Assembly: GCA_016432425.1 (NCBI GenBank)
Contig: CP066688.1
Coordinates: 20,368-84,367, forward strand
DNA length: 64,000 bases
Direction of reading: 5' to 3'
DNA from: Candidatus Daviesbacteria bacterium
GTDB taxonomy: Bacteria; Patescibacteriota; Microgenomatia; Daviesbacterales; UBA10151
Part shown: one piece after another, positions 34,554-62,846 of the stretch
Numbering within the stretch: the first letter of the stretch is position 1
Layout: each line of letters starts with the position of its first letter
Position numbers and translations under genes: made by a program
Notes under the pieces: model-generated
Databases searched by the model: none
Seen by the model: the letters and a program-made list of their open reading frames with translations, nothing else
What the model was told of the DNA's origin: nothing

Positions 34554-35721
34554 AGATGTGGCTTAAATTTTGGGCAATTTTTTCGTAAGAATATTCTTCT
34601 TCTACTAATTTGCGCGCTTTTTCCGCTATCTCCTGATATTTTTGCCGGTCATTTAATAAACCAATTGCCAGTTCCGCCAAAATTTCACTACTTTGGCCCA
34701 CCAATACTGACTGACCATTTTTGGCAGCTATTCCCTCAATGCCAATTTGGGTCGTTACCACTGGCACTTTGGCCGCCATTGCTCCCAAAATTTTTAATCT
34801 GGTACCCCCCGGGCCATACAAAGGAGCTACCAAAATACCGGCCTGCAAATAAGCAAGTCTTACTCCCTCGACATCATCAATTTCTAAATCCAGTAATTTA
34901 ATATGATCTCCTTTTAAATCATTTAATTTATCAGTATTTTGCCCCGCTATTATTAGCTGCGCTTCCGGAATCTGTTTTAAAATCCGCGGAAAAACTTCTT
35001 TAGCTAAAATATTAGCTGCTTCAATGTTTTGTAACCAGGCATAATTACCCATAAAAAGAATCTTTTGGGAAAAATGTAACGGTGGATTTTCCATTAAATC
35101 TTCACCCACTCCGTTAGGAACTACATCTACCCGCAAACCTTTGACCAAATTTTTCATAGCCTCTGCATCCCTGGTGGATACTGCCACCACCCGCGAAGCT
35201 TTTTTCCAAAAATAAGTTTCCCAAAATTTAATTTTTAAGACGTCAACCATCAGCAGCGGCTTTAAAAAAAAGAGGGGGAAATTTCGCACAAAATGATGAT
35301 AAACTTCAAATTCAATGGTTTGGTCAACTAAAATAATGGGGATTCGAGTTTTGGGAATATGAGGGCTGACATAAAAAGTTTCTGCATGAATAATATCAAA
35401 GTGGCTATTTGTTAAAATTTCCTGAATCTTTTTTTTCTCTTCTTTAGAATAATTCCTAATTACTAAAAACGGATATAAACTGGTGGCAGTCTTTAAAATA
35501 TTTGATATCGACCAAGGATGTTCTGCTCTTTTAAAAACAAAAACTTCCTGGCAATACTTTTTTAAATTATCAATATATTTTTTTTCAGATTCATATTTAA
35601 TTAAAGAACAAAGAGTAATTTGATGTTTTTGGGAAAGTTGTTTAATCAAATTATAAGAGCGGATTTGTCCTCCGCTTGAGGGCGGATAAGGTAAGTATGG
35701 TGTGAGCATTAATATTTTCAT
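34531..35721 (-). CDS. GT4 family glycosyltransferase
   Basis: A GT-B C-terminal domain (APLYGPGGTRLKILGAMAAKVPVVTT) with an N-terminal Rossmann-like half. Confidence 0.7.
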   Translation of the reverse strand: MKILMLTPYLPYPPSSGGQIRSYNLIKQLSQKHQITLCSLIKYESEKKYIDNLKKYCQEVFVFKRAEHPWSISNILKTATSLYPFLVIRNYSKEEKKKIQEILTNSHFDIIHAETFYVSPHIPKTRIPIILVDQTIEFEVYHHFVRNFPLFFLKPLLMVDVLKIKFWETYFWKKASRVVAVSTRDAEAMKNLVKGLRVDVVPNGVGEDLMENPPLHFSQKILFMGNYAWLQNIEAANILAKEVFPRILKQIPEAQLIIAGQNTDKLNDLKGDHIKLLDLEIDDVEGVRLAYLQAGILVAPLYGPGGTRLKILGAMAAKVPVVTTQIGIEGIAAKNGQSVLVGQSSEILAELAIGLLNDRQKYQEIAEKARKLVEEEYSYEKIAQNLSHIYESFKKD

Positions 35722-37178
35722 GGCTCGGGATCGCTCCCCTCTAGCGGGTGTTGAATTTTAGTTAAATCAGCAATTACAAATTCTGAACTCTTTTTTAAAA
35801 CAGTAAAATGCCGAATCACCCAATTAGTTTTATCATCATAGGAGGTAGAAATATAATAATGTACTCCATATTCTGCCACCAAATCTACCAAGGGCAAAAC
35901 CGTCGTGGCAAAACCTGCCCGGTTAGTTTGATACAAAAAGGCAGTGTCACCGTTATAAGGAGCCACCACCAGCGCATCTTTAGGTAAAATTTGATCCGCC
36001 ATTCTTCCCGCTTGGATAATAGGGGGGTTGTTAATCTTATAAAACTCTTTTACCGGAACCCAAGTTAAATAAAAAGTTAACCCTAAGAAAATTAAACTTA
36101 AAGGTACACTTATCAACCGAGGAATCAATTCCTGCGAACGGTTAATCAAAAAATTTACACCCATTGAGACAAAAACAGCCAACACCGGGACTAAAACTGT
36201 TTGGTAATAATTATGCCTGACATTACCACTGGCAAAAATGGCGATATTTAAAAACATAGAAAATGCCCACCAATGGAAAAAATAATTTCTAGCTTCCGGT
36301 CGGCGCAAAAATCCTAAGAAAAACAAGAAAAACCCTGTTACTCCCAAAATCTCTCCCCCCAATCGGTTTTGAACTATCCACCACCAAAAAGCAGGTCTAA
36401 ATCTAATCCCATCCCCATTTATTAACCAATTAGAAGCCGGAATTCCTTCTGGTTGTTGCAAGATCCACAATCTCCATAGAATAAACGGTATCATTGCCAG
36501 CAAAAATAAAACCATAAATTTAAGTTGCCTCTTAAGAGGTTTTTGAATTCCCAAATAAATAAGCGGTAAGAAAAAAAAGATTGCCCAAGGTTTGATTAAA
36601 AAGGCAATACTGGTAAAAAAGACGGCCCACCATTTAAAATGATTTTCTTCAATAAATTTTATCCAAAAATAAATCATCCCCAAAGAGAAAAAAATTAAAG
36701 TTGGTTCCGGCAAGGTAGTCCGGGAGAAGAAAATATTAAATGGTAAAAAGGTAAAAATGGCAGTTGATAAAACACCTAAAAATTTCCCCTTGAACGCTCT
36801 GACAATTAAAAAAAGAAAGACGCCGGCACCTAAAGAAACTAGGGCAGAAACAAGTCTTAAAAATAAATCACTAATACCAAATAGTAAAAAGAGCGGATAA
36901 ACTAAAATATTATAGACAGGAAACTCGACAAAACGGAAACGGTCTGGATTAGGGATGGGTTTTTCCGCTACCCCAGACATATCGTCATATTTAGGTAAAA
37001 ATGGGTTAAAACCCTCTTTGACAAAATTGCGCGTTACTGCGGCAGTATCTGCCTGACGCCATGAATGCCAGTCAGCAATGGGGGCATTTATTTTATAAAG
37101 ACGCACTCCCAAACCCATTATTAAAATTAAGCTCAACCAAAAATACTGATTTTTAAAAATTGCCAGCAGTCTAATCAT
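35718..37178 (-). CDS. GT-C polytopic membrane glycosyltransferase, PMT_2/GT39/ArnT-like
   Basis: The first loop carries the motif HSWRQADTAAVTRNF, characteristic of PMT_2/ArnT-type enzymes. There are more than 10 TM segments and a C-terminal soluble domain. Confidence 0.6.
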   Translation of the reverse strand: MIRLLAIFKNQYFWLSLILIMGLGVRLYKINAPIADWHSWRQADTAAVTRNFVKEGFNPFLPKYDDMSGVAEKPIPNPDRFRFVEFPVYNILVYPLFLLFGISDLFLRLVSALVSLGAGVFLFLIVRAFKGKFLGVLSTAIFTFLPFNIFFSRTTLPEPTLIFFSLGMIYFWIKFIEENHFKWWAVFFTSIAFLIKPWAIFFFLPLIYLGIQKPLKRQLKFMVLFLLAMIPFILWRLWILQQPEGIPASNWLINGDGIRFRPAFWWWIVQNRLGGEILGVTGFFLFFLGFLRRPEARNYFFHWWAFSMFLNIAIFASGNVRHNYYQTVLVPVLAVFVSMGVNFLINRSQELIPRLISVPLSLIFLGLTFYLTWVPVKEFYKINNPPIIQAGRMADQILPKDALVVAPYNGDTAFLYQTNRAGFATTVLPLVDLVAEYGVHYYISTSYDDKTNWVIRHFTVLKKSSEFVIADLTKIQHPLEGSDPEP

Positions 37179-38562
37179 GTTTAAATTTAACTAAAGCAAC
37201 AGAGGCTCCCAAAACTAACCATAAAATAAAAGAAATTTTTGATGACTCCAACGCATCAATAAAAGTAGAATTTATGAAAATTACTAAAACTCCCACAAAA
37301 GAAGCAGTTAAGAGATAAAAAGTGAAATTTTTATGATCAGGCCGTTTTTTCCAAATAGTCCGCAGTATTATCCACCAAATCAGGGCAAAACTTAAAAATC
37401 CTAACATACCGGTTTCCCCTAAACTTCTTAGATAATCATTATCGGTGGCAATGGTGATAGAGGAATAACCGCTACCCAAAAAAGGATTTTTAAAAAAGGC
37501 TCTTACAGCTCTAGGCCACTCCACATTTAACCTGATTTCAAAAGAGCGGAAAACTCCTAGCTCAGTAGAGTTAATAGGTTCGCCTGGAGCAACGTCAACT
37601 GGTATCCCGGAGAAGGTGGCAGAACTGCTTGCAGCATTTTCAATAGAAAAATGTTTGGTAGGATTGGGCTTTTGGGGGGGCGGGCTATATTTAGCTCCCC
37701 CTCCTCCTAATAAATTCACCGTCACAGTGGCGACAGTTCTGTGCCGAAGATCAGGAGAGATAACAAAAGCTCCCAGACTTAAAAGTATTAATAAAAATAT
37801 TAATTTACGCTGACCCACAAACCACAAAACTGCCGCTGCTCCCAGTATGGTTGACAAAAAAGAAACCCGGGCAGCAGTTAGACTAAGTAATATAAAACCC
37901 AACAAAGAAGAGAAAAGTATCAGTAGTTTTTCTTTTAGCTTTCTAACATAAAACAAAAAGGCTGTGGCAAAGATTAAAAATACTGACAGATAAACCGCCA
38001 GGTCATAATGACCGGCGAAAGTAGAATTAACCCTAGCGCCGGGAGTTAAAAATAATATTAAACCTTTAGAAAATTCCTTATTCATAGTAGAAATAACCGG
38101 GAAGGAAAACCATTGTTGGCCAAAGCCATAAAATATTATTATTAAAGTGGTTAGCAGTGAAATTTTCAGTAAATTTTTAATTTGATTTAAATTCTGGACG
38201 GCATCCAAAGCCACAAAAAATAAAATCATCACCTCTACTCTTCTTAAAAAATGTAAGATACTTAAGTGCCAGGATACAGTATGGGTCACCAAGATGCCGG
38301 AAAAAACTGACAGCGCTCCTACTGCCCAAAATAAAATAAAAGCCTGATATAAAGGCTGTTTTAAACTGTCTCCTATAGAACCTACTTTAGAAATTAACCA
38401 CCATAAAAATACCACTGCCACAATAAAATCTTCTAATCTGACTGCCACATAAGTACCCGGCACACTAATTAAAGGAAATTTAGGGTACAGAGGTATAAAA
38501 ACAAATAAAAAATATACCCACCAAATTAAATATTTACGGCAAAGAAACGATAACTTTTGCAT
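37171..38562 (-). CDS. Wzy_C / O-antigen ligase-family membrane protein (second copy in window)
   Basis: WPRAVRAFFKNPFLGSGYSSI...DNDYLRSLGETGMLGF is the Wzy_C signature. An unusual Gly/Pro-rich insert GGGGAKYSPPPQKPNPTKHF lies in the large external loop. Confidence 0.7.
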   Translation of the reverse strand: MQKLSFLCRKYLIWWVYFLFVFIPLYPKFPLISVPGTYVAVRLEDFIVAVVFLWWLISKVGSIGDSLKQPLYQAFILFWAVGALSVFSGILVTHTVSWHLSILHFLRRVEVMILFFVALDAVQNLNQIKNLLKISLLTTLIIIFYGFGQQWFSFPVISTMNKEFSKGLILFLTPGARVNSTFAGHYDLAVYLSVFLIFATAFLFYVRKLKEKLLILFSSLLGFILLSLTAARVSFLSTILGAAAVLWFVGQRKLIFLLILLSLGAFVISPDLRHRTVATVTVNLLGGGGAKYSPPPQKPNPTKHFSIENAASSSATFSGIPVDVAPGEPINSTELGVFRSFEIRLNVEWPRAVRAFFKNPFLGSGYSSITIATDNDYLRSLGETGMLGFLSFALIWWIILRTIWKKRPDHKNFTFYLLTASFVGVLVIFINSTFIDALESSKISFILWLVLGASVALVKFKHD

Positions 38563-39412
38563 AGGTTAAAGAAATATTAAATTTACCTATTATAAAAAAT
38601 AATACCATTCGCAAGGTAGCAGCTAAATAGACTAATAATTTTATCCCTGAACCTACTAAAAAGTTTTGTTTTTTAAAAAATAAAATCAAACCCTTAAATT
38701 CACCTGTCCATTGTCTAAATTTAGGTTGGTCCAAACTTCCACCAGACAGATGTTTAATCGAAACTGCCGGGTTAATCATAACTTTAAAATTATTTTTTGT
38801 GGCTTTAAAACAATAGTCAATATCTTCAAAATACATAAAATATTCCTCGTTTAAAGGCCCAATTTTAACAATCACTTCTTTTTTAACCATCATAAAATTG
38901 CCGGAAACCCAACCCACCGGATGAGGCCTTTTATAGAAACTGTCTTCATTTCGATGCAATGAGGACAACCCCAAAACATCTAAATTAAATAGCCAGCTAA
39001 AAACAGATAAAAAATTAGGCAGGTCTCCTCCACTGGGTTGCAGGCTGCCATCAAAATTTAAAACCTTGCAACTGGCAATCCCGCAATCCGGATACTCATT
39101 CATAAATTCCACCATCGGATCTATGACATTTTCATCCATCTGGGTATCGGGATTTAAAATCAAATAAAAATCACTTTTAATATTTTTTAAGACCAGATTG
39201 TGTCCACCGGCAAAACCGAGATTTTTTTTACTTTCAATCAATTTAACTTGAGGAAATTCTTTTTTAATGACTGCAACTGAACTGTCACTAGAGGCATTAT
39301 CAACTACTATAATTTGGACTTTATTTTGATATTTAAATTTTAAGAGGTCATTTAGGGAGTTTCTAATTAACTGGCTGCTGTTGAAACTGACAATGCTAAC
39401 TGTGACCAACAT
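38534..39412 (-). CDS. GT2 family glycosyltransferase
   Basis: VTVSIVSFNSSQLIRNSLNDL...IIVVDNASSDSS is the GT-A N-terminus, with the DxD region YFEDIDYC. Confidence 0.75.
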   Translation of the reverse strand: MLVTVSIVSFNSSQLIRNSLNDLLKFKYQNKVQIIVVDNASSDSSVAVIKKEFPQVKLIESKKNLGFAGGHNLVLKNIKSDFYLILNPDTQMDENVIDPMVEFMNEYPDCGIASCKVLNFDGSLQPSGGDLPNFLSVFSWLFNLDVLGLSSLHRNEDSFYKRPHPVGWVSGNFMMVKKEVIVKIGPLNEEYFMYFEDIDYCFKATKNNFKVMINPAVSIKHLSGGSLDQPKFRQWTGEFKGLILFFKKQNFLVGSGIKLLVYLAATLRMVLFFIIGKFNISLTYAKVIVSLP

Positions 39413-39413
39413 G

Positions 39414-39986
39414 TTAAATTATTTCTTTCTGCAGCGATTTTCGCCAAATTTTAAAAACCGAGATTGATAGTCCCCATATTGCCAAATAAACAAAAATTCG
39501 CCAAATAATATTATTAGGGTAAAAACGCAAAGTAGTTTTAGAATCATAATATACCCCGTTAATATGGACATGATCTCCCACAAAATTGTGGGGTGCCTTC
39601 AACAACTCGTTGTGTACAAAAGGCTCATACCCTCCCACAAAAATCGAACCGCGCAGGGGATAAACATATTCTTCCATGAAGGTAACATAAATTTGATCAC
39701 GGACCATTCTTTTAGCTTCCTCCGGAGGGTAATTTAAAGTTAGTGGTGGAAAGAATTTGCCAAAGATAAATGAATCTTGATAATCTTGCCGATAAAACTC
39801 TGTTATCTCAGCTCTTTTAGAAAAAGAAAAGAAAGCCGCAATATTGGGAACTTGCACCGTGTCGCCCGGTTCATCTGATTTTGCAGACTGAGGCAAGGGA
39901 GAAAAATCTTCCACAGAAGTAGGACCAGGTAAAATAATATACAATAAACCAAGTATAAAAATAAAAGGCAAAATTTTTTTTCTCAT
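39414..39986 (-). CDS. hypothetical bitopic membrane protein
   Basis: It has N-terminal and C-terminal hydrophobic helices and no motif. It sits inside the glycan locus. Confidence 0.45.
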
Positions 39987-40624
39987 TGAAAGAGCCGCGC
40001 CCGCCCTAGCAGGTAGTGAAGATTTTTATTTTTCCGTTCACCAATTTTGACAGCTGGCACGCCTCCCACAATTTCATATGGTTTCACATCTTTAGTAACT
40101 ACTGCTCCCGCAGCCACAGTCGCCCCTTCACCAATTTTGACCCCCGGCAAAATAATCACCCTGGGGCCAATAAAAACATAATCACTAATTTTTACCGCAG
40201 CAACAGTCGCCCGAAAATCTTCAGAGTTAATATCATGTTCGCTGTTATAAATTAACACCTGTGAAGCAATATCTACATGATTGCCAATAATTAGTTTATC
40301 CCGGCCATCTAAAAAAGCATCAGCTCCCACAATAGAATCCTCCCCAATTTCTATATTAGGCGGATAAAAAAATTGCGTACCCATGTGCAGGTGAGATCCT
40401 GCTCCAATTTTGACTCCGGCTAAAACATAAAAAAGATAGCGAATAGAATAAAGAGGTATCAACCCTACAATCCGTAAAATTAACAGTTCTGCATCCAGAA
40501 AATAATTAAAAATACGGTTAATTATTTTTCTGATAGCCTCAGTGGTAGACAAAGTTCGCCCGGACTTATCTTTAAAAACCAAACCATCCCGTAGATTTAT
40601 GGCTAAATTATCGGAAAACAGCAT
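39983..40624 (-). CDS. hexapeptide-repeat (LbH) sugar O-acetyltransferase with N-terminal membrane segment
   Basis: Left-handed beta-helix repeats ([10 protein letters not shown]...[11 protein letters not shown]...[11 protein letters not shown]...[29 protein letters not shown]) are present, as in WcaF/WbbJ-type acetyltransferases. Confidence 0.75.
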
Positions 40625-40642
40625 AATTTGAGTATAACAAAT

Positions 40643-41821
40643 TTAAGCTTCTTTTACTAATTTGGTGAAGGTGGATAAAACTACTTTAGCAGCCGTTTCC
40701 CAAGAGTATTTTTGAGCTTGCTGCAGGCCTAATTTACTTAAAGCTTCATTTAATTTTTTATCATTAATGACTGCTCTGATGGCCTGCTCTATCTGAGTTA
40801 CTGAGTAAGGGTCTATTAAAAGCCCAGCTTTGCCTACCACCTCTGGCAGGGAGGAAACGTTGGATACTACCACCGGAGTACCGGTGGCCATAGCCTCTAC
40901 TACCGGAATACCAAATCCTTCCCAAAGTGAAGGTAGGACAAAGGCTGCTGCTCCGGATAAAAGACAGGGTAACTCTTCGGTGGGTACAAACCCTGGAAAA
41001 ATCACTCGCTCCGGGATATCTAATTTTTGAGGTGTTTGTAAAATTTCCTGAAATTGCCAAGCCTCTCTACCCGGACCGGTAGTTTTACCCACTACCACTA
41101 ATTTTAAATCTTCAATATTTTTAACTGCTTCCATTAAGCGAATAATATTTTTTTTAGGTTGAATCGTCCCAATGAAAATAATATAGCGGCCAACAATACC
41201 ATACTTATCCTGAATTTTTTTAATTTGAGAACTATTTTTGATGGGACGAAAAACTGTTTGGTCAAAACCGGGATAAAAAATTGTAATTTTATCTGCTTTC
41301 AACTTATACTGTTTTATCAAATCCTTTTTGGTAAAGTTAGAAATTGTTAAAACGTGCTGTGAGTTTAAAACTGAAAATTTAGTCCAATTTGTTAATTTAT
41401 ATAAGTCTCCTTTATTAAACATTTCCGGAAATTGTAAAAATGACAGGTCGAAAATTGTCACTACTTTCGGAACTGGGCAAAACCTGGGAACATAATGAGT
41501 GGGAGAAAAAAATAGATCTGGTTTAATCCTAGCAAAATATAGCGCAAAAGGCAGAGTTATCCTGGTCCAAAGTTTACTGGGTCTGAGGATTTTATATTTC
41601 CAACCTTCACGTTCCTGAGGCATATCTTCCATGGGAGAAGAGGGGAGGAAAATCGTGTATTCATTTTTTTGGTCTAATTTTTCTAAAGATCTTATAAGTT
41701 CATAGGCTACTTGTGAGGAACCTAGTCTTTGTGGCACATTAGCTTCATATCCATCTATCCAAATTTTCATTTTGTTAACCTCCGATAAACCTCTGTTGTT
41801 TCCTGGGCTGCTTTTTCCCAA
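40643..41821 (-). CDS. GT4 family glycosyltransferase
   Basis: The EX7E region reads EGFGIPVVEAMATGTPVVVS. Confidence 0.75.
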   Translation of the reverse strand: MGKSSPGNNRGLSEVNKMKIWIDGYEANVPQRLGSSQVAYELIRSLEKLDQKNEYTIFLPSSPMEDMPQEREGWKYKILRPSKLWTRITLPFALYFARIKPDLFFSPTHYVPRFCPVPKVVTIFDLSFLQFPEMFNKGDLYKLTNWTKFSVLNSQHVLTISNFTKKDLIKQYKLKADKITIFYPGFDQTVFRPIKNSSQIKKIQDKYGIVGRYIIFIGTIQPKKNIIRLMEAVKNIEDLKLVVVGKTTGPGREAWQFQEILQTPQKLDIPERVIFPGFVPTEELPCLLSGAAAFVLPSLWEGFGIPVVEAMATGTPVVVSNVSSLPEVVGKAGLLIDPYSVTQIEQAIRAVINDKKLNEALSKLGLQQAQKYSWETAAKVVLSTFTKLVKEA

Positions 41822-42792
41822 GAGAAACGTTTCACATTTTCCAGTCCCAATTTAATTAAATCCTCCCGCAATTTAGCATCCTCCATTGCTTCAGTTACTT
41901 TTTTGGTAATTTCCTCTTGATTTAAAGGGTCAACTAAAAGTGCACTTTTACCTGCCACCTCCGGCATACTGGAAATATTAGAGGTAATCACCGGGGTTCC
42001 GCAAGCCTCCGCCTCTAAAATCGGCAGGCCAAACCCTTCATAGAGTGAGGGATATAATAATAAGGTAGCTGTAGAATAAAGTAGCGGCAACTCTGTTTCG
42101 TAATCTAACCATGGCAAACTTTGACCGGCAATAACCAGATGATAATTTTTACAAGCTGCTTTGACTCTTTCTAAGTTACGCCTTTCACCTATGCCGCCAA
42201 TACTCAAAACAAAAGTCTCCGGCAGTTGGTATTTTTTCTTAAATTCCCTAATTTTTTCTTCCAATTGGGGTTTGAATTGTTTTCCTGCTGCTTCATAAAC
42301 TACCGTAATTTTATTCTCCGGTATTTTTGATATCTTCAACAAATCCTCTTTGGTAGAGCGCGACACCGCAATTACCTGATCAATTTCCCGCTCCACCAGT
42401 TTTAAGCGCTCTCGGTGGACAGAGACAATTTTCGGATGTGACCATTGAGGAAATTTTAACGGCACCACATCATGATAAGTAGTTACTTTCTTCGCTCGGC
42501 TTGGAGGTTGAACCCAATCGCTGGAATGGAAAATATTCAGCGGGCCCAAAAACTTCTCAATACTAACGTTATGTAACTTATTGAATAATACTTCAAATAA
42601 AGTTGGCGGAAGCTTAAATTTGCGGACATTTTTTAAATTACCATGGTAAGGTTGTCGCAGTGAGGAATAAAAATAAACCATATCTAAACTAGACAGTTTA
42701 GATAATTCTTCAGTTAAGCTTCTGGTGTAAGTATTGACTCCCCCAGCGTGAGCCAATTGTGAAATATCAAATCCAACTTTAATTTTCGCCAT
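41767..42792 (-). CDS. GT4 family glycosyltransferase
   Basis: The EX7E region reads EGFGLPILEAEACGTPVITS. Confidence 0.75.
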   Translation of the reverse strand: MAKIKVGFDISQLAHAGGVNTYTRSLTEELSKLSSLDMVYFYSSLRQPYHGNLKNVRKFKLPPTLFEVLFNKLHNVSIEKFLGPLNIFHSSDWVQPPSRAKKVTTYHDVVPLKFPQWSHPKIVSVHRERLKLVEREIDQVIAVSRSTKEDLLKISKIPENKITVVYEAAGKQFKPQLEEKIREFKKKYQLPETFVLSIGGIGERRNLERVKAACKNYHLVIAGQSLPWLDYETELPLLYSTATLLLYPSLYEGFGLPILEAEACGTPVITSNISSMPEVAGKSALLVDPLNQEEITKKVTEAMEDAKLREDLIKLGLENVKRFSWEKAAQETTEVYRRLTK

Positions 42793-42804
42793 TTATATAT
42801 TGTA

Positions 42805-47418: not shown

Positions 47419-47442
47419 GTAATTAGAAGGTCTCCTTCACTA

Positions 47443-53028: not shown

Positions 53029-53088
53029 AAACTAATGAATTTTAACCATTATCTTAAATTTTATAACTAACGCATGTGCGAATACAAA

Positions 53089-53117
53089 TTGACACAACCA
53101 ATTTAACTATTTAGAAT
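53089..53117 (+). promoter_or_regulatory. sigma70 promoter (TTGACA, 17-nt spacer, TAGAAT) for the plus-strand operon starting at 53129
   Basis: TTGACA at 53089-53094 and TAGAAT at 53112-53117 form a textbook promoter. The ATG lies 11 nt downstream. It sits in the divergent region between 53028 and 53129. Confidence 0.55.
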
Positions 53118-53128
53118 GAGCTAATCGC

Positions 53129-55186: not shown

Positions 55187-55830
55187 TGACTAAACCTAAA
55201 GAAAAAACTCTGACTGCTATTTGGCAACAAGTTCCGGCAGACTATTACGACCAAGGAATGCAGAATAATTTTCTGCAATTTATTTGGCACCGACAAAAGT
55301 GGACCTTTTTCCGAAAACTTATGGAGGGAGTAAAATTTAAATTAATTTTAGATGTTGGTTGTGCCAGCGGCACTTTTACCAACAGGTTAACGGAACTTTT
55401 CCCTCAGGCAAAAATTTATGGAGTGGATGCTTACAGTTCTGCCATTAAATTTGCCCAAAAAAAATATCCTCATCTAAATTTTTTGAAAGCCGACGCTCAC
55501 CAGCTACCCTTTAAACAAAATTCTTTTGACTTAGTTATTTGCTATGAAACCATTGAGCACGTAGTCGACCCGCTCCAGGTTTTAAGACAGATGCACAGAA
55601 TTTTAAAAAAAGACGGTCTGGCCATTTTGGCAATGGACTCGGGTAATTTGATGTTTAGAACTATTTGGTGGTTCTGGGGAAAAACCAAGGGTCGGGTTTG
55701 GGAAGGGGCACATTTGCACCCTTTTCATCATGACCATTTGGAAGAAATTGTGCAAAAAAGTGGTTTTAAAATTCAACAGAAAAAATTTTCCCACTTCGGA
55801 ATGGAAGTAGTGTTCGTTCTCAAAAAATGA
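55186..55830 (+). CDS. class I SAM-dependent methyltransferase (type 11)
   Basis: Motif I ILDVGCASGTF, post I LVICYETIEHV and motif III LKKDGLAIL. Confidence 0.75.
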   Translation: MTKPKEKTLTAIWQQVPADYYDQGMQNNFLQFIWHRQKWTFFRKLMEGVKFKLILDVGCASGTFTNRLTELFPQAKIYGVDAYSSAIKFAQKKYPHLNFLKADAHQLPFKQNSFDLVICYETIEHVVDPLQVLRQMHRILKKDGLAILAMDSGNLMFRTIWWFWGKTKGRVWEGAHLHPFHHDHLEEIVQKSGFKIQQKKFSHFGMEVVFVLKK

Positions 55831-55876
55831 AGGGGATCTTCTAATTGCATTATGAGGGGGACCCTCTAATTATATT

Positions 55877-57829
55877 ATGAAAAATCGTATCTTAGTATTG
55901 TCTTTTTTATCCATACTAGTACTGCTACTGTTTCTACCATTTATTTTAAATCCTCAATTATTACTAAACCGCAATAATGATTTGCAGGAAGTTTTTGGCC
56001 CCATATTTTTGTTTATAAAACAGCAGGTAATTACCAACCACCAGTTCCCTTTTTGGAATAGTCCGTGGTTTGCCGGCCAACCACTACTACCAGATCCTCA
56101 ATTTTCCTTTTTTTATCCGCCTAATTTATTGTTCTTAATTTTACCAATTGGCACAGCATTCATTGTAACTTTCTTTTTTCATCTTTTAATGGGCGGGGTG
56201 GGAATTTTTTTAATTTCTTCTAATATTTTTAAACTCTCAAAATTTAGCAGTTTATTTAGCGCAACTTTATATATCAGCTCACCTAAAATCATGGGGTTCC
56301 TGGTGGCCGGCCATGTGGGATTGGTAGAATCCAGTGCTTGGATCCCTTGGGTAATTTTAGCCACCATTAAACTCTCTTCATCAGCCAACATCTACTGGGT
56401 ACTGCTGTTATCGGCAAGTTTAGCCGGGTTATTTTTTACTCATACAGTTATTTTTATGATCACTATAAGTAGCAGTATCGCATTATTTTTGTATTGTTTA
56501 ACTCTCCAAAGAAAAAATATTTCGTTATCATTCAGGTTTATATTTTTAGCACTCGTAGGTACCGGCGGGCTGACAGCAGTCACCTTGCTACCCCAGCTGG
56601 AATGGTTAAAATCTACTACCAGATTCTTACTATTAAATACTAGAGAAGTTTTTCCTCAATGGAACTCTGTCGGGGAATTTATTAAATCGGTACTGGCTTC
56701 CGTTTACAACCTAAAAAATTTACAAAATATTGACAGCGAAAAATGGCTGCCCTTGGGACTCTTGGTAATTATTTTGTCACTCATTGGTTTTTTAAATTTA
56801 AAGAGAAAATTTAAAATTATTTTGTCAGTAACTCTAGTCTCGATAACACTAATTTCTTTAAATAACGCTTCACCGCTCTATCAATTTTTTTTGAAATTAG
56901 ATCCATATGTCTTAATGCGAGTTTCTACCAGAGTTTGGTTTGTGACGATTATCATTACTACCTTCTTAGCTAGTTTAGGAATTGAATATATTAGAAAAAA
57001 ATTTGGATTTAAAATCGCCGTTGTTATTGCAATTTTAGCGGTAGCAGAATTGTATTCTATTTCCTGGATATATATGCTCAAACCAGTGGAGCAAATCAAT
57101 TTTGCTCCTATTGAAGTTACTAACTATTTTAAAAATGACCACAACCTCTATCGAGTTTTCTGTGTCACCAGATGTTTATCTCAAAAAGAAGCTGCTGAAA
57201 ATAAATTAGAACTTATCGAAGGATACAATACCATCCAGCAATACAATTATTATAAACAGTCCTGGCAGCTGATGGGCAATTACTGGAATTATTATACTTT
57301 AGCCATCCCCCCTTTCGGCATTACCGAGTATGAACAGCTCAAACCGGACGCAAAGTCCCTGGGGGAATTTAATACTAAATATATTATCTCTCCCTATCCG
57401 CTGGAGGATCAAAACTTGAAGCTAGATCAAAAAATTAACGATTTCTTTATTTATCAAAATAACCTTTTTAAACCGCGTTCATATTTTTTTGATGCCGAGA
57501 TAGGAATTTTAGATGGTGCTAAAATTAATTACTACTCCCCTAATTTAGTCCGTGTGGATACATCTGCAAAATTAGCCAGCAGGGTAATCTTGGCTCAAGT
57601 TTATAGCCCGGGCTGGAATGCTTATTTGAATGGGCAAGAAAAAACTCCGGTTCTGGAGCGGCCAAATGCTTTAATGTTGGTTGATATTAAACCCACCACT
57701 AAATATGTTGATTTTCGATACGAGCCCGGTAGTTTTAAAATCGGTTTAATAATTAGTTTAGTAACCTTATCCTTTTACTGTTTTCTTTTAATTAAGGGAA
57801 AGGTCAACTTAAAATGGCTGCAAATCTAA
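55877..57829 (+). CDS. YfhO-like polytopic membrane protein (putative GT-C glycosyltransferase)
   Basis: The N-terminal pattern NDLQEVFGPIFLFIKQQVITNHQFPFWNSPWFAGQPLLPDPQFSFFYPPNLLF resembles YfhO family proteins. It has more than 12 TM helices and a C-terminal external domain. Confidence 0.5.
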   Translation: MKNRILVLSFLSILVLLLFLPFILNPQLLLNRNNDLQEVFGPIFLFIKQQVITNHQFPFWNSPWFAGQPLLPDPQFSFFYPPNLLFLILPIGTAFIVTFFFHLLMGGVGIFLISSNIFKLSKFSSLFSATLYISSPKIMGFLVAGHVGLVESSAWIPWVILATIKLSSSANIYWVLLLSASLAGLFFTHTVIFMITISSSIALFLYCLTLQRKNISLSFRFIFLALVGTGGLTAVTLLPQLEWLKSTTRFLLLNTREVFPQWNSVGEFIKSVLASVYNLKNLQNIDSEKWLPLGLLVIILSLIGFLNLKRKFKIILSVTLVSITLISLNNASPLYQFFLKLDPYVLMRVSTRVWFVTIIITTFLASLGIEYIRKKFGFKIAVVIAILAVAELYSISWIYMLKPVEQINFAPIEVTNYFKNDHNLYRVFCVTRCLSQKEAAENKLELIEGYNTIQQYNYYKQSWQLMGNYWNYYTLAIPPFGITEYEQLKPDAKSLGEFNTKYIISPYPLEDQNLKLDQKINDFFIYQNNLFKPRSYFFDAEIGILDGAKINYYSPNLVRVDTSAKLASRVILAQVYSPGWNAYLNGQEKTPVLERPNALMLVDIKPTTKYVDFRYEPGSFKIGLIISLVTLSFYCFLLIKGKVNLKWLQI

Positions 57830-59238
57830 TTAACCATTTACCAAAATATATCAAAGAATATTTATTAATTGGTTTGATACTTTTAGCTGCCCTGGTGGGG
57901 AGGATTTTATATTTATCACCCTATTTAGAAGATTGGGATAGCGTCCAATTTGCTCTGGCGATGAACCATTTTTCTCTGATTAAAGAGTTACCACATGCCC
58001 CCGGTTACCCACTATATATTTTGCTGGGAAATTTTATGAAGATTTTCTTTTCCTCGGATAATCTAGCTTTAACCATTCTCAGTGCAATGACGGGATCAGC
58101 AACAGTCTTAGTTACTTATTTATTAACTCAAAAAATGTTTAATAATAAATTAACTGCTTTAGGGGCAGCTTTAATTTTTACTTTTATTCCGGTAAGCTGG
58201 AGTCTGTCTGAACAAGCTTTAACTAACGTTCCTGGTTTATTTTTTCTTTCTTTGCTAGCTTACTTACTGTATAAATTTATCGACAACCCCAAAATTATTA
58301 TCCTGATCAGTTTTTTATTTGGGCTGCTGTTAGGACTACGGTTTACTGAACTGCCGATCATAATGGCTTTACTTTTATTTGTATTTGCTTGGAAGAGAAA
58401 TTTAAAACTAGTTTTGTTTTCTTCTTTAAGTTTTGTTGTAGGTATACTCTTTTGGCTGGGACCTTTAATTATAGTCACCGGCTGGACAGACTTTGTTAAA
58501 GCATACCTCAAGATTGCCAATTATATTTTCAATCATGATTCTTTACTGGGAGGTGACCGTTATGGTTTTTATCTAATACGCCTTAGATTAAATCACTTAT
58601 TTTATATTTTGAAAATCGCTTATGGGCAGATCTTCATTCTCATCTCTATACTAATACTAGCATTTACAATCTGGCAAAAAAAACAAAGGACAGATAGTAG
58701 AATTCAATTTTTATTAGTTTGGTTTTTAACATATTTAGTCTTCCTTGTTTTCTTCTTTAATTTGGAAGTTACTCGTTACAGCTTACCTCTAACTGTCCCC
58801 TTAGCCATTTTAACAGCTGCTGCCTTAAGTAAGTTAATCACCAATAAAACAATCTATACAGCAGTAATTTTAGTAACTTGTGTAATTTTGTTTAAAGACT
58901 CTTATTATCAAGTAAGTCAATTCAAAAATTCTCTCCCCCCTACTATGGCTCCGGTTCTTTTGGTTAAAAAAGAGTTCAGTTCATCTGAAACTACTCTTAT
59001 TCCCACTTTGTTAAAACGTCATTTTCAATACTACACTCCGCAGTTCTCATTGGTTGATTTAGATGAGTTCCACTCTCAAATTATCACCAGTAAATTCGTC
59101 ATTATTGATCATCTTTCCACCATTGATAAAATTAAAGATTTGCGCAGTTACAAACTTAAGGATAAAAAAGAATTTTATGGAGATCGGGAAATCTATAACC
59201 GGGTCCCCCGCACTACTATTTATATTTTAGAAAAATGA
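57814..59238 (+). CDS. DUF2723/TMEM260-like GT-C membrane protein (putative protein O-mannosyltransferase family)
   Basis: The first loop DSVQFALAMNHFSLIKELPHAPGYPLYILLG matches the DUF2723 signature (D..EF..A.....aHPPGYPL). About 11 TM segments are present. Confidence 0.55.
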   Translation: MAANLINHLPKYIKEYLLIGLILLAALVGRILYLSPYLEDWDSVQFALAMNHFSLIKELPHAPGYPLYILLGNFMKIFFSSDNLALTILSAMTGSATVLVTYLLTQKMFNNKLTALGAALIFTFIPVSWSLSEQALTNVPGLFFLSLLAYLLYKFIDNPKIIILISFLFGLLLGLRFTELPIIMALLLFVFAWKRNLKLVLFSSLSFVVGILFWLGPLIIVTGWTDFVKAYLKIANYIFNHDSLLGGDRYGFYLIRLRLNHLFYILKIAYGQIFILISILILAFTIWQKKQRTDSRIQFLLVWFLTYLVFLVFFFNLEVTRYSLPLTVPLAILTAAALSKLITNKTIYTAVILVTCVILFKDSYYQVSQFKNSLPPTMAPVLLVKKEFSSSETTLIPTLLKRHFQYYTPQFSLVDLDEFHSQIITSKFVIIDHLSTIDKIKDLRSYKLKDKKEFYGDREIYNRVPRTTIYILEK

Positions 59239-59242
59239 ATAG

Positions 59243-60949
59243 TTACTTTTTAATTAAATAATTTTCTAAAATTAATACATCCAGTTCACTGTTCATAAAT
59301 GTATTGTAAGCTTCCTCATTAGTATTAACTATTGGCTCACCTTTTAAATTAAAAGAGGTATTGAGCAATGTTGATATTCCTGTTTGCTCACCAAAACTTT
59401 TTACCAGATTATAATAAGCAGGGTTAATGGGTTTCTTAATCAGTTGGGGGCGGGCTGTCCCGTCTACATGAGTAACCGCCCCTAATTTAGCTTGCCAAGA
59501 CTTCTTAACCGGTACTACCGCCAGCATATACTCTAAAATAGGAGGGATCGCGGATCCAATTTCAAAATACTGCGATCCTTTTTCATACAAAGATACCGGG
59601 GCAAAAGGCCTAAAGGCTTCCCTAAATTTAATTTTTTTATTTACCAAATCTCTCATTTTTTTACTTCTCGGATCAGCCAAAATGCTGCGCGCCCCCAAAG
59701 CCCGGGGTCCCCATTCAAATCTACCTTTAACCCAACCAATTACTTTACCCGCAGCCAAAAGTTCTGTCACTTGATTATTTAAATCTTGGTCAGAAAGTCT
59801 TTTGGCAGTTAAATTGTTTACTCTTAAAAATTGTTTGACTGAAGACTCTGAGTTCTGCTGCCCCAAAAATACATCCTGAAAAGATTTTTTTCTTGGTTTA
59901 CCTAAAATATGGTAATAAAGATAAAGGGCGGCTCCCACTGCCCCTCCGGAATCCCCTGCCGCCGGATGAATAAAAATATTTTTAAAGCCGGCTTCTTTAA
60001 ATATCCGCCAATTAGCTACCCCGTTTAAAGCCACTCCTCCGCCATAACATAAATTTTCCTCACCGGTTTCCTGTTGCAAAGCTTTAGCAATTACTAACAG
60101 TTTTTCTTCTAAAACTTTTTGGGCGCTAGCAGCAATATCGGCATATTTAATAAAAACTTGATCACCATCTTTGGGGTTAACAGGAGGCAATTTAAAAAGC
60201 TTGACAAATTTATCAGTAAAACTCTTTTTTTCGGAGACATGGAAATTAAAATAATCTATATTCAACCTGAAAGAACCATCTTCCGCTTGTCTAATTAGCT
60301 TTTCTACTTCTGCCACATATTTGGGCTGGCCGTAAGGCGCTAACCCCATTACTTTATATTCTCCTTCATTAATCTCGAACCCTAAATATTGGGTAAAGGT
60401 ACTGTAAAAAAGACCCAGCGAGTGAGGAAATTTTATTTCTCTGTTTAAAACTAGCTTATTACCTTGACCTTTTCCCAAAGCCGTGGTGGTCCACTCCCCC
60501 ACCCCATCACAAGTTAAAATAGCGGCTGATTTAAAATCACTGGTGTAATAAGAGCTGGCAGCATGGGAAAGATGATGGCCGCCAAAAAAAATTTTTTTGG
60601 CTGGAATTTTTAGAGTTGAGGCAATCGTGGCTTTAACCCACAATTTATTTTTTAACCAAGTTTTATAAGCATCTGTAAATAAACCCCTCGCTACTGGTAC
60701 GGTTGCCAGAGCAGATAAAGTGATTCTTTCAAATTTAGTGAACGGTTTTTCATAAAAAATTACATAATCTAAATCTTGGGCAGCAATTTCGGCAAAATTT
60801 AGGCAAAAAGCAATTGCTTGTTTGGGGAAACTAGAGTCGTGTTTTATCCGAGAAAACCGCTCTTCCTCGGCCGCTGCTAAAATTTGGCCATCTTTAATTA
60901 AAGCAGCCGCCCCATCATGGTAATAACAAGAGATTCCTAAAATATACAT
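59243..60949 (-). CDS. carbamoyltransferase (NodU/CmcH family)
   Basis: The N-terminus ILGISCYYHDGAAALIKDGQILAAAEEERFSRIKHD matches Carbam_trans_N, and a C-terminal Carbam_trans_C-like region is present. Length is 568 aa. Confidence 0.8.
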   Translation of the reverse strand: MYILGISCYYHDGAAALIKDGQILAAAEEERFSRIKHDSSFPKQAIAFCLNFAEIAAQDLDYVIFYEKPFTKFERITLSALATVPVARGLFTDAYKTWLKNKLWVKATIASTLKIPAKKIFFGGHHLSHAASSYYTSDFKSAAILTCDGVGEWTTTALGKGQGNKLVLNREIKFPHSLGLFYSTFTQYLGFEINEGEYKVMGLAPYGQPKYVAEVEKLIRQAEDGSFRLNIDYFNFHVSEKKSFTDKFVKLFKLPPVNPKDGDQVFIKYADIAASAQKVLEEKLLVIAKALQQETGEENLCYGGGVALNGVANWRIFKEAGFKNIFIHPAAGDSGGAVGAALYLYYHILGKPRKKSFQDVFLGQQNSESSVKQFLRVNNLTAKRLSDQDLNNQVTELLAAGKVIGWVKGRFEWGPRALGARSILADPRSKKMRDLVNKKIKFREAFRPFAPVSLYEKGSQYFEIGSAIPPILEYMLAVVPVKKSWQAKLGAVTHVDGTARPQLIKKPINPAYYNLVKSFGEQTGISTLLNTSFNLKGEPIVNTNEEAYNTFMNSELDVLILENYLIKK

Positions 60950-60950
60950 T

Positions 60951-61178
60951 TTATTGTTTTTTCAAATCTTTTATCTTAAAATAATTATCTTTAAAATCCT
61001 CCCATTTGGGACTGTCTTTAACATGCAGAAAATCAGCCAAAACCTGGGTTATTAAACCCAAAGGGGTTGCCAGTATAAAATATAATAAAGAAAAAACAAC
61101 TGTGACCTGGAAATTACCTATTTTTTCGGCAATTTTTTTCCATTTTTCCCAAACTTTTTTCATAAAAATATTACTCAA
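60951..61178 (-). CDS. small membrane protein (75 aa), often found 3' of carbamoyltransferase genes
   Basis: A single TM helix (VTVVFSLLYFILATPLGLITQVL). Its stop is 2 nt after the carbamoyltransferase start. Confidence 0.45.
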   Translation of the reverse strand: MSNIFMKKVWEKWKKIAEKIGNFQVTVVFSLLYFILATPLGLITQVLADFLHVKDSPKWEDFKDNYFKIKDLKKQ

Positions 61179-61388
61179 ATATATTTTAGAAGAGCGGATA
61201 AATTATGGGAGCCAAGGGAGAGGAACCCACTAATAAAATTAATAGCCCTACTACTAGGAATACTAGCATCATGGGGATTAACCACCACAATTTTCTTCTC
61301 CATAAAAATATAAAAAATTCTTTGACTATTTCAAACCTATTTAATAAATCATTCATTAAACAACCTTAACATATTAAAAATATAGTTT

Positions 61389-62846
61389 TCAATATGGAAA
61401 AAATGGTGTTAAAGATATCATTTTTTCCTGGTTATATTTTTCACTATCAATCGCTTCATAGTAAACCTTAATCGATAAATCGTTATATAAAAGTTTCAGT
61501 GCATCTGATCCCGATAGTATGTAAAATACTTGTTTAGAAGAGCTTCCCCAATCTTGAGAAATATAGGGATAACCAGGATCATCCTTTATGAAAAAGTTTG
61601 CTCCTTTATCTATTTGAGGAACTTCATGTTTAATACTACTTAGTATCACTTTTGCGGCCTTTGCCCTTTTGGCAGCCCAATGGGTGCTTTGATTAAGTTG
61701 GATAGTTTGCCAAGATAGCCCTAAAAATGCTACCACAAAAAATATCACCACAAATTTACCTATTTTTTGCCAGGTCAATAAATTAGAGATCGGATAGACG
61801 ATAAATCCTGCAAAAAATACCAGTGGTAAATTTAAGTAATAACTAAAAATATGTTTCGGGAAAAAAATAAAAGGTGTCAGCGAAATGATAAATGAAAAAA
61901 ATAAAAAATAAAAAATGGAATTTAAATTGCGAAAATATCTCCCAAAAGCAATGGCGACAGTTATAAGTATAATACCAATAATTGGTGTTATAAGTAGTAA
62001 ATAATCTCCATAATATTTAAATAGATTAGGGTTTATTTCAAATTTTAAGGTCATAAAATCTCTTAACATTTCAGGCAAACCTATGGTCCACAAGGATAAC
62101 CATACAAATGAATTTATCACACTAGGCGGAGAAAACACTGGTTGATATACTTGCTGTTGAGAAATTCCGAAATAAGCAAAATGGACAAGTATTCTTAAAA
62201 ATAAAAGTAGCACGAATGGCAGCAGATTAATAACTATCCTTCTAAAAGAATTTTTCTTGCAGAAAACTTCATATAAAAATAAAATACCAATCAGTACTGC
62301 CGCTGATTCATGTGATAGTAACGCTGTAATAAAAACTAATATAGATAAGTACCAATTAATAATTTTTCTTCCTGTAGAAAATTTATGATAATTTAACAAA
62401 CCAACTAACACAAAAAATGTAGAAAGTAATGTTTGAACAGATGATAAATAGTATAATTCAACACTATGTATAGGACTAATCAGATAAATTAAAAAGGCTA
62501 AAAAACCAATCAGTTCTTTTTTGCTAACCATCTTTATGAGTAGGAAAACTAAAAAAGAATTAATAAATATTAAAACTAGGTTTATTAAATGATATGGAAA
62601 TGGATTTAAATTATACAACTTGAACATGATAAAATTATATAATTCTCGACTTAAAGGGCGATAAAAGGTTTGTTCATCGCTAAATTTAGGAATAAACAAT
62701 GACGGGAGATCTGTTATTTCTTTTCCCAACAATAATCTTAAATGGAAAAAATCATCTTGGGAAAAATAAGAATTGAGAGCATTCCAATTAAAAATTATCA
62801 GTATAAAAACTGACAAGAAGATTACAAAAACGTTAAGAATTTTCAT
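61389..62846 (-). CDS. polytopic membrane protein, putative GT-C-type glycosyltransferase (PMT-like loop motif)
   Basis: The first loop reads SQDDFFHLRL...FYRPLSRELYNFIMFKLYNLNPFPYHLINLVLIF (DD...FRPL...G.NP..YH..N pattern). About 12 TM segments are present. Confidence 0.45.
   Translation of the reverse strand: MKILNVFVIFLSVFILIIFNWNALNSYFSQDDFFHLRLLLGKEITDLPSLFIPKFSDEQTFYRPLSRELYNFIMFKLYNLNPFPYHLINLVLIFINSFLVFLLIKMVSKKELIGFLAFLIYLISPIHSVELYYLSSVQTLLSTFFVLVGLLNYHKFSTGRKIINWYLSILVFITALLSHESAAVLIGILFLYEVFCKKNSFRRIVINLLPFVLLLFLRILVHFAYFGISQQQVYQPVFSPPSVINSFVWLSLWTIGLPEMLRDFMTLKFEINPNLFKYYGDYLLLITPIIGIILITVAIAFGRYFRNLNSIFYFLFFSFIISLTPFIFFPKHIFSYYLNLPLVFFAGFIVYPISNLLTWQKIGKFVVIFFVVAFLGLSWQTIQLNQSTHWAAKRAKAAKVILSSIKHEVPQIDKGANFFIKDDPGYPYISQDWGSSSKQVFYILSGSDALKLLYNDLSIKVYYEAIDSEKYNQEKMISLTPFFPY

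Follow-up and report, generated by a model that had tools for sequence, protein, structure and literature searches.

The characterised bacterial glycosyltransferases of the PMT_2 and YfhO families, namely GtlB, GttB, GtcC, CsdD, CsdF, GtsC, GacL and YfhO, act on lipoteichoic acid, wall teichoic acid and wall polysaccharides and not on proteins (Rismondo et al., PMC8035078, Tables 1 and 2), and the carbohydrate-binding modules (CBMs) of AftD, EmbC and GT136 bind the acceptor polysaccharide (PMC11127046). In TMEM260, a protein of 707 residues, the TPR region (residues 411-707) is believed to choose the protein clients (PMC10214176). Here we analyse a gene cluster encoding nine GT-C glycosyltransferases in Candidatus Daviesbacteria bacterium, an ultra-small groundwater member of the Microgenomates within the candidate phyla radiation (CPR). 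The cluster lies in a stretch of 64,000 nucleotides (GenBank assembly GCA_016432425.1, contig CP066688.1, positions 20,368 to 84,367 of the forward strand; henceforth the window). We judge it rather probable that this cluster assembles a complex heteroglycan of the cell envelope, which would be a secondary wall polysaccharide or else a glycan with a lipid anchor, and the pathway is most likely a hybrid of Wzx/Wzy-type and extracytoplasmic GT-C steps.

Pfam scans of the open reading frames (ORFs) revealed a single glycan-biosynthesis region from position 28970 to the end of the window. A Logan contig (L001) that is identical over one of the GT-C genes (E, see below) runs past the window end (window coordinate = L001 coordinate + 52,635) and carries the cluster ~4.4 kb further, to ~68,400 in window coordinates. 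In all, the cluster comprises 34 genes in ~39 kb, encoding one phosphoglycosyl transferase (PGT), ten Leloir glycosyltransferases (six GT4 and four GT2) and nine GT-Cs. The latter are four PMT_2/TMEM260-like enzymes, two YfhO-superfamily enzymes, two members of an unmodelled family (henceforth the G family), one of them with an F5/8-type-C domain, and one AftD-like enzyme. A first-pass annotation of the window had singled out seven GT-C ORFs (henceforth A to G), all of which we recovered at the positions it gave. The cluster span that it drew, 35718-62846, is real but too narrow, as the cluster begins at 28970 and runs past the window end with two more GT-Cs (H and the ninth).

Pfam recognises four of the seven. 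A (35718-37178, minus strand, 486 residues) scores 46.8 bits against PMT_2 (cut-off 26.1), B (42805-44235, minus strand, 476 residues) scores 61.4 bits, and C (46003-47418, minus strand, 471 residues) is a weak member that passes at 29.2 bits, just above the cut-off. C and G had been described as lacking clear motifs; C nevertheless passes PMT_2, and no family model covers G. F (57814-59238, plus strand, 474 residues) carries a TMEM260-like/DUF2723 N-terminal module (PF11028, 47.6 bits, cut-off 24.2, residues 58-194) and also matches PMT_2 (33.2 bits). The motifs HSWRQADTA, LWLDEA and HAPGYPLY, read from the sequence alone in A, B and F, are indeed present, at residues 38, 21 and 61, respectively. 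Loop 1, whose topology is inferred from hydropathy and models, contains D36 and D44 in or beside the motif of A (at least 95% conserved in 68 sequences), the pair D24-E25 in B (at least 95% conserved in 25 sequences), E27 in C (at least 95% conserved in 24 sequences) and E39, D40 and D42 in F, for which two sequences were compared. The seven enzymes are not recent paralogues, the best pair in all-vs-all BLASTP and phmmer comparisons being B and F (8e-7).

The sequences of D, E and G found no match in Pfam, NCBIfam or the PDB (including D and E against PF09586, at E <=0.01), and the family profiles of E and G retrieved nothing meaningful from the PDB. Homologues of the three (95 for D, 253 for E and 241 for G) come nearly all from Daviesbacteria, Microgenomates or metagenome contigs, and a minority of them show weak matches to families of the GT-C clan: PTPS_related (PF10131) for D; YfhO, PTPS_related and DUF6541 for E; and PMT_2 for G. 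A precomputed PF09586 match is present in 12 of 120 E homologues among the matches listed. Searched with its family profile, E reached 41,921 cluster representatives at E <=1e-3, and of the intermediates that it found at 1e-64 to 1e-80, 10 of 10 sampled ones score above the Pfam cut-off for YfhO. By this chain of profiles, E is a divergent member of the YfhO superfamily that falls outside the PF09586 model itself. D is homologous to E (hhalign probability 98.2%, E 6e-14, over 327 columns of the transmembrane (TM) domain) and aligns with G at 80%. For E, this agrees with the YfhO-like label that D and E had been given at first sight.

The architecture of D and E is likewise that of the YfhO type, in which an extracytoplasmic domain is framed by a TM bundle at the N terminus and a TM helix at the C terminus, the reference architecture being taken from general knowledge and PMC8035078. 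In D (50320-53028, minus strand, 902 residues) TM segments extend to about residue 417, followed by an extracytoplasmic domain of ~450 residues and a last TM segment at 873-891; its loop 1 holds an invariant D35 in the motif WGDAP. Residues ~117-146 of D form an insertion specific to the lineage (…KDKQSLPIHHVQGKQSLPPPVGGGKIPK…). It contains a short internal repeat, KQSLP, and is not part of the family consensus in the hhalign output. In E (55877-57829, plus strand, 650 residues) the TM bundle is followed by a beta-sandwich domain and a C-terminal TM segment. Its AlphaFold2 model is helical up to residue 400, beta-rich at 412-615 and helical again at 618-641, and in its loop 1 D35 (NDL) is invariant. 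In G (61389-62846, minus strand, 485 residues) loop 1 bears the invariant FSQDDFFH (D31 and D32). The AlphaFold2 check that had been proposed for the membrane proteins was run for E and G, and gave predicted local distance difference test (pLDDT) values of 94.2 for G and 94.1 for E from alignments of 57 and 59 sequences. The best structural match of the E model is AftD, aligned over 528 residues that include the soluble domain. Identity to the mycobacterial enzymes in such matches is 8-13%, ArnT is among the structural neighbours, and fold scores are alike for PMTs, ALGs, STT3, ArnT and Aft enzymes, so the fold does not discriminate between them.

For G, the GenBank call (HYW45_00415) is 380 residues long and begins at M106 of the 485-residue ORF. 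Homologues of ~490 residues span 100% of the long ORF, and F28-H35 (FSQDDFFH) is invariant, so the deposited annotation omits the first TM segment and the catalytic loop. Proteins identical to others of the cluster are on record under the locus tags HYW45_00370 and HYW45_00390.

Two further GT-Cs follow G. H is an AftD-like protein of 1020 residues encoded on the minus strand, of which the window holds the last 245 codons (63266-64000) before the gene runs off; the full gene is in L001. At full length it matches GT-C_AftD (PF11847) with 32.3 bits (cut-off 26, residues 39-494) and has a conserved loop-1 D33. The ORF listed at 63266-63808 is an internal-start artefact of the H frame. The next gene (minus strand; L001 13677-15194, ~66,300-68,400 in window coordinates; L003 16946-19012) is annotated by its F5/8-type-C domain only. 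Its product has ~11 TM segments and an invariant loop-1 FFxQDxW, and aligns with the G family by hhalign (99.5%, E 5e-23, 397 columns); the TM segments and this alignment together therefore identify it as the ninth GT-C. Its C-terminal domain resembles discoidin/galactose-binding domains of the lectin or CBM type, and large extracytoplasmic beta-rich or lectin-type domains occur in four of the nine enzymes (D, E, H and the ninth).

Taken together, Pfam matches (A, B, C and F) and profile or hhalign evidence (D, E and G) agree with the first-pass annotation that all seven are GT-C enzymes. It had named a lack of acidic residues in loop 1 as a finding that would speak against this reading; such residues are present in all seven, and in every one but F they are invariant or at least 95% conserved. 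Judged by sequence, D, E and G are GT-C enzymes like A, B, C, F, H and the ninth, and at least two GT-C lineages, the G family and the D/E branch of YfhO-like proteins, lie outside the current family models. Some of these proteins could instead modify membrane lipids, as ArnT or EptA do, or be non-catalytic scaffolds associated with a flippase, like Agl23. This would be in keeping with the weak matches of A and B to the NCBIfam Agl23 model ('flippase activity-associated protein', 26-41 bits) and with ArnT among the structural neighbours. We consider it quite improbable, since six of the seven window GT-Cs, and H as well, conserve the catalytic-position acids, the genes sit inside a glycan-assembly operon, and the Agl23 matches are far under the cut-off. 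Agl23, MmpA and archaeal STT3 were set aside as leads to the function of the membrane proteins, their NCBIfam scores being far below threshold.

Knowing the parts of the cluster, we asked how widely its gene order is kept. A scan of a genome collection with the E alignment yielded 23 loci (Daviesbacteria, Woesebacteria, Blackburnbacteria, Microgenomates and other Patescibacteria), and a metagenome scan with A yielded 80 loci, of which 40 reach 13 kb or more. When the window proteins were mapped by BLASTP on the 23 genome loci and the 40 long metagenome loci, the same gene order emerged at ~30-70% amino acid identity. On one side the conserved order is B, GT2c, GT4f, C, MTa, GT2d, Wzx, D, E (with or without F), (G), s129, H and the ninth GT-C; on the other it is DUF4012, PGT, GT4a, GT4b, (GT2a), GT4c, A, WzyC, (GT2b), unk190, AcT, GT4d, GT4e and B (the genes are described below). 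Beyond DUF4012 the neighbours recur as well, namely RecO, a class II aminoacyl-tRNA synthetase (aaRS), a 305-residue protein without assignment, mraZ and mraW. The loci vary in the RmlD/SGNH/MTb insert and in where the carbamoyltransferase module sits. A chance association of these genes is excluded, as the order is conserved in dozens of diverged genomes. Because gene order and the position beside RecO and the dcw division genes are kept across such genomes, comparison of the loci indicates that the cluster is a core, vertically inherited block and not a variable O-antigen island.

This synteny also decides against an ordinary, strain-variable Wzx/Wzy locus for O-antigen, capsule or exopolysaccharide (EPS) with a few serotype-converting GT-Cs of the Gtr type. 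The classic parts list of such a locus is present (PGT, Wzx, a Wzy_C-like protein, many GT2 and GT4 enzymes, and acetyl- and methyltransferases). O-antigen and capsule loci are typically hypervariable, whereas here order and chromosomal place are kept at ~30-70% identity across several candidate phyla or orders of Microgenomates. Furthermore, the GC content of the cluster equals that of its flanks (the window as a whole is ~36% GC), nine GT-Cs far exceed what Gtr-type decoration needs, and neither Wzz/PCP nor Wza-like export components were found among the window ORFs scanned (at least 120-150 residues). We therefore rejected a variable O-antigen or EPS island on synteny and hold this explanation to be very improbable indeed. 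The claim of the first-pass annotation that the locus goes beyond an ordinary O-antigen pathway is upheld by this core collinear block, tied to dcw genes across Microgenomates.

Several metagenome-assembled genomes titled 'uncultured Gammaproteobacteria bacterium' (L006-L008, L011, L017-L022, L025 and L026) carry the Microgenomates-type cluster, one of them on a chromosome of 810,692 nucleotides (OZ246419.1). These record titles look like placeholder or wrong taxonomy.

From domain families, GT-C folds, conserved catalytic-position acids, operons and synteny, we infer the roles of the enzymes, the order of the steps and the chemistry of an envelope heteroglycan pathway in three stages. In the first, at the cytoplasmic face, a small monotopic PGT (30863-31498, minus strand, 211 residues; Bac_transf 206 bits, NCBIfam EPS_sugtrans and the WbaP C-terminal domain) would act as the initiating enzyme and prime polyprenyl phosphate. 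Up to ten Leloir enzymes, all encoded on the minus strand, would then build a lipid-linked oligosaccharide. The six GT4 enzymes are GT4a (31512-32564; Glycos_transf_1 104 bits; syntenic), GT4b (32555-33649; Glycos_transf_1 123 bits), GT4c (34531-35721; Glyco_trans_1_4 65.7 bits; beside A in 40 of 40 loci), GT4d (40643-41821; Glycos_transf_1 125 bits), GT4e (41767-42792; Glycos_transf_1 82 bits) and GT4f (45068-46018; Glycos_transf_1 103 bits). The four GT2 enzymes, all scored against Glycos_transf_2, are GT2a (33660-34553; 91.6 bits; NCBIfam matches to generic GT2 only), GT2b (38534-39412; 70 bits; one C-terminal hydrophobic, TM-like segment at 257-275), GT2c (44232-45077; 281 residues; 116 bits) and GT2d (48247-49101; 57 bits; syntenic and adjoining Wzx).

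Acetyl-, methyl- and carbamoyltransferases together with an RmlD-like reductase may serve for decoration or for an unusual sugar. They are a WcaF-like hexapeptide O-acetyltransferase (AcT; 39983-40624, minus strand; Hexapep 62 bits, WcaF family 98.6 bits), two S-adenosylmethionine-dependent methyltransferases (MTa, 47443-48246, minus strand, Methyltransf_23 95 bits, syntenic; MTb, 55186-55830, plus strand, Methyltransf_11 89 bits), a NodU/CmcH-type carbamoyltransferase (59243-60949, minus strand; Carbam_trans_N 280 bits, Carbam_trans_C 226 bits) and an RmlD-like NAD(P)-dependent sugar reductase (53129-54019, plus strand; RmlD_sub_bind 146 bits; TIGR01214 145.7 bits, under its cut-off).

In the second stage, a Wzx-type flippase (49068-50333, minus strand; Polysacc_synt 76 bits) would flip the lipid-linked unit, which the Wzy_C-like polytopic protein encoded at 37171-38562 (minus strand, 463 residues) would polymerise or ligate. 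The latter gene overlaps A by 8 nucleotides and adjoins it in 38 of 40 loci, and the protein has conserved R232, R275, R344 and H185; it is a candidate polymerase or ligase, a class within which sequence alone does not separate Wzy polymerases from ligases or O-oligosaccharyltransferases (O-OTases).

In the third stage, outside the membrane, the nine very divergent GT-Cs would extend or branch the glycan, one sugar each time. Their donors would be polyprenyl-phosphate sugars, and GT2c and GT2d are candidate donor synthases. The stop of GT2c overlaps the start of B by 4 nucleotides, a pairing kept across loci, and it is this conserved translational coupling that makes GT2c a candidate, unproven, polyprenyl-phosphate-sugar synthase. 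As acceptors we favour the glycan over protein for four reasons: characterised PMT_2 and YfhO enzymes glycosylate glycans (PMC8035078); D, E, H and the ninth GT-C carry beta-rich or lectin domains like the acceptor-binding CBMs; PMT_4TMC and MIR domains are absent; and F is without the TPR domain of TMEM260.

Several observations weigh against this reading. The Wzy_C match of the protein at 37171-38562, 24.8 bits, is under the Pfam cut-off of 31.7. When the four GT2s were typed against NCBIfam and the PDB as polyprenyl-phosphate-sugar synthases, they matched generic GT2 enzymes, with weak matches of the DPMS, ArnC or GtrB type; for GT2c, too, the best PDB and NCBIfam matches are generic GT2, and DPMS reaches only 38 bits. 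A small membrane protein of 129 residues with ~4 TM segments (s129; 62858-63247, minus strand), which always lies between G and the AftD-like gene and is kept in most loci, is a candidate flippase or partner, yet it matches neither GtrA nor any other Pfam family. Neither an LCP (LytR_cpsA_psr) ligase nor Wzz/PCP was found among the scanned window ORFs, and without an LCP ligase attachment to peptidoglycan is unexplained in the window. Some of the nine GT-Cs may also have a protein acceptor.

As no wall ligase was found in the window, transfer to protein of the Wzy_C type is conceivable, and so is a lipid anchor; this brings us to protein O-glycosylation, the headline of the first-pass annotation. 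The glycan could be transferred en bloc to an S-layer protein, pilin or other surface protein by a Wzy_C-like O-OTase of the PglL/WsaB type, and PMT_2/TMEM260-like enzymes could, in addition or instead, act on Ser/Thr. Firmicutes S-layer glycan clusters have a similar parts list. Pfam matches to PMT_2, PMT or TMEM260-like families in A, B and F and the PMT-like DE pair in B would fit, and so would a second, solid Wzy_C protein (4814-6013, plus strand, 399 residues, 64 bits), which weakly matches TIGR03097 ('putative O-glycosylation ligase') and whose gene overlaps that of an Ig-domain surface protein. We nevertheless regard protein O-glycosylation as unlikely. PMT_2 is a generic ArnT/GT83/GT39-like model that is not specific for protein acceptors (PMC8035078). 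The match of A to PMT (PF02366) is partial, covering profile positions 76-205 of 245 only, and barely at threshold (23.8 bits, cut-off 22.7), that of F is below the cut-off (16.4 bits), and B and C have none. No PMT_4TMC or MIR domain was found by Pfam at E <=0.01 in any of the seven window GT-Cs, F has no Pfam TPR match and hence not the client-recognising domain of TMEM260, and glycan acceptors are suggested by the domains of lectin or CBM type that D, E, H and the ninth carry. Even if protein were the final acceptor, most of the nine GT-Cs would modify the glycan. Thus, of the 'protein or cell-wall glycosylation' proposed at first, the cell-wall half is the better supported.

The GT-Cs had also been placed beside Wzy_C-family proteins, which applies to the in-cluster protein with its sub-threshold score, whereas the solid Wzy_C protein lies ~30 kb from the main cluster. 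PDB searches with both Wzy_C-like proteins, by single sequence and by profile, gave nothing meaningful. The partner of the solid Wzy_C gene, overlapping it by 4 nucleotides (the pair spanning 4092-6013, plus strand), encodes a membrane-anchored Ig-domain protein (Glucodextran_B/Big_6, 241 residues), and the pair could represent a ligase or O-OTase together with a partner or the target of the enzyme. The last 42 nucleotides of the 4814-6013 ORF overlap a tRNA-Val(CAC) gene (5972-6044, minus strand), and the C-terminal tail of this Wzy_C protein ('...GTEGLEPPTSAM') may be read-through into the tRNA complement and not real protein.

Putting the heteroglycan pathway together with its conservation, we tentatively propose, as a broader possibility, a lineage-defining, dcw-linked wall or lipo-heteroglycan of Microgenomates, and perhaps of other CPR bacteria, that would be built largely outside the membrane by nine GT-Cs and part of which might be linked to a surface protein by F or by the Wzy_C-like protein.

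The remaining genes of the cluster encode small or poorly classified proteins. A DUF4012 protein of 630 residues with one N-terminal TM segment (28970-30862, minus strand; Pfam DUF4012 89 bits) marks the cluster boundary beside RecO, and occupies the same position, followed by RecO, in 24 of the 40 long metagenome loci. A bitopic membrane protein of 190 residues (unk190; 39414-39986, minus strand) has no family match and is kept in 23 of 40 loci. A membrane-anchored SGNH/AlgX-like protein (54020-55186, plus strand), with an N-terminal TM segment and weak ALGX and GDSL matches that are all below cut-off, is a candidate extracytoplasmic O-acyl transferase or esterase. A 70-residue protein (60951-61163, minus strand), called in L001, is co-conserved with the carbamoyltransferase in L005, L011, L016 and L025, and next to it lies a DUF5989 protein of 56 residues (61186-61356, minus strand; 59.6 bits). 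The carbamoyltransferase, the 70-residue protein and DUF5989 form a three-gene module (59243-61356, minus strand) that is kept but placed differently within the cluster in L005, L011, L016, L025 and L064.

These genes are arranged in three operons. The long minus-strand operon begins with D and ends with the DUF4012 gene (28970), in the order D, Wzx, GT2d, MTa, C, GT4f, GT2c, B, GT4e, GT4d, acetyltransferase, the 190-residue protein, GT2b, Wzy_C-like, A, GT4c, GT2a, GT4b, GT4a, PGT and DUF4012, and 12 of its 20 junctions overlap. A divergent plus-strand operon holds the RmlD-like, SGNH-like, MTb, E and F genes; in the divergent intergenic region upstream of it, consensus matching alone points to a near-consensus sigma-70-like promoter (53089-53117, plus strand; TTGACA-17-TAGAAT, 11 of 12 matches). 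Convergent to the latter, a minus-strand operon contains the ninth GT-C, H, s129, G, DUF5989, the 70-residue protein and the NodU-type carbamoyltransferase.

On the other side of the cluster boundary lies RecO (28284-28934) and, beyond it, a dcw-type division and wall cluster (8179-28282, minus strand) with mraZ, mraW, a penicillin-binding protein (PBP), Mur ligases, mraY, ftsW, murG, ftsA and ftsZ, plus isoleucyl-tRNA synthetase (IleRS) and rodA. It has two oddities, both on the minus strand: a MurB-like FAD_binding_4 protein of 195 residues (19823-20410), consisting of about the N-terminal domain only, between two Mur ligases, and a PaaX_M-domain protein of 166 residues (21780-22280) between the PBP and a Mur ligase. 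The 305-residue protein mentioned above (25791-26708, minus strand) is membrane-anchored, has no family match and lies between the aaRS and mraZ, as it does in related genomes (55-64% identity).

CPR bacteria, or Patescibacteria, account for a large part of the diversity of bacteria; their genomes are tiny, and they live fixed to other cells. To our knowledge, their envelope chemistry is essentially uncharted. In this genome, ~39 kb of an 820-kb contig (~5%) and ~20 glycosyltransferases are given to one glycan pathway, and since gene content, gene order and the place beside the division genes are the same in its relatives, we argue that the product is a central envelope component and not an accessory antigen. 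The cluster provides a concrete parts list for CPR surface glycobiology, and its three or more GT-C lineages uncovered by present family models come with identified catalytic loops, high-confidence models for E and G and, for G, a correction of a GenBank gene call that lacks the catalytic motif. If the proposal holds, the glycan would in effect take the place in Microgenomates that arabinogalactan or teichoic acid has elsewhere, and it could plausibly mediate host attachment. Should F attach glycan to a surface protein, it would be the first bacterial TMEM260-type protein glycosyltransferase. In the literature, covered incompletely so that absence is no proof, we found no published description of such a cluster in CPR, Microgenomates or Daviesbacteria; the Patescibacteria reviews and genetic studies consulted mention no glycosyltransferases, and nothing beyond a small EPS locus in a Saccharibacterium.

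How, then, does the cluster compare with known systems? With the eukaryotic and actinobacterial PMTs (GT39) and TMEM260 (GT117) it has in common the GT-C fold and an acidic loop-1 motif, F matching the N-terminal model of TMEM260 and B having the DE pair. It differs from them in lacking PMT_4TMC and MIR domains, and F, with 474 residues, is without the TPR region of the 707-residue TMEM260 (PMC10214176). The three-component GT136 systems for pentofuranose side chains (Kelly et al. 2024, PMC11127046) also combine a GT-C with a C-terminal CBM and act on the polysaccharide post-polymerisation, which is reminiscent of the ninth GT-C and its F5/8-type-C domain. Here, however, the window contains neither a polyprenyl-phosphoribose synthase (PPPRS) nor a MATE flippase, and the TM domain of the G family has no family model.

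In its logic the cluster matches the multi-component transmembrane glycosylation systems of Firmicutes and Gram-negative bacteria (CsbB/GtcA/YfhO, GacI/GacK/GacL, GtrA/B/C and ArnC/ArnT). They use the same PMT_2 and YfhO families of GT-Cs; here, translational coupling links the GT2 gene GT2c to the PMT_2 gene B, and a Wzx-type flippase is in the locus, as is the case with GacK (PMC8035078). Yet in those systems one GT-C adds one side-chain sugar, whereas nine GT-Cs are found here in one conserved set of operons, whose GT2s are without clear signatures of undecaprenyl-phosphate-sugar synthases and in which no GtrA homologue was detected.

Finally, mycobacterial arabinogalactan and lipoarabinomannan (AftA-D, EmbA-C, PimE, the Mpt enzymes and decaprenyl-phosphate sugars) are made in a different setting from that of a CPR bacterium with a ~0.8-Mb contig. 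The Bac_transf PGT and Wzx found here contrast with WecA and an ABC transporter there, the window has no UbiA-type polyprenyl-phosphoribose synthase or DprE-like epimerase, and sequence identity in structural matches is only 8-13%. Nonetheless, H matches the AftD model, AftD is the best structural match of E, and the gene content here suggests the same logic, in which a cytoplasmic lipid-linked primer is flipped and then elaborated outside by many GT-Cs, some with carbohydrate-binding domains, in a core pathway linked to the cell wall.

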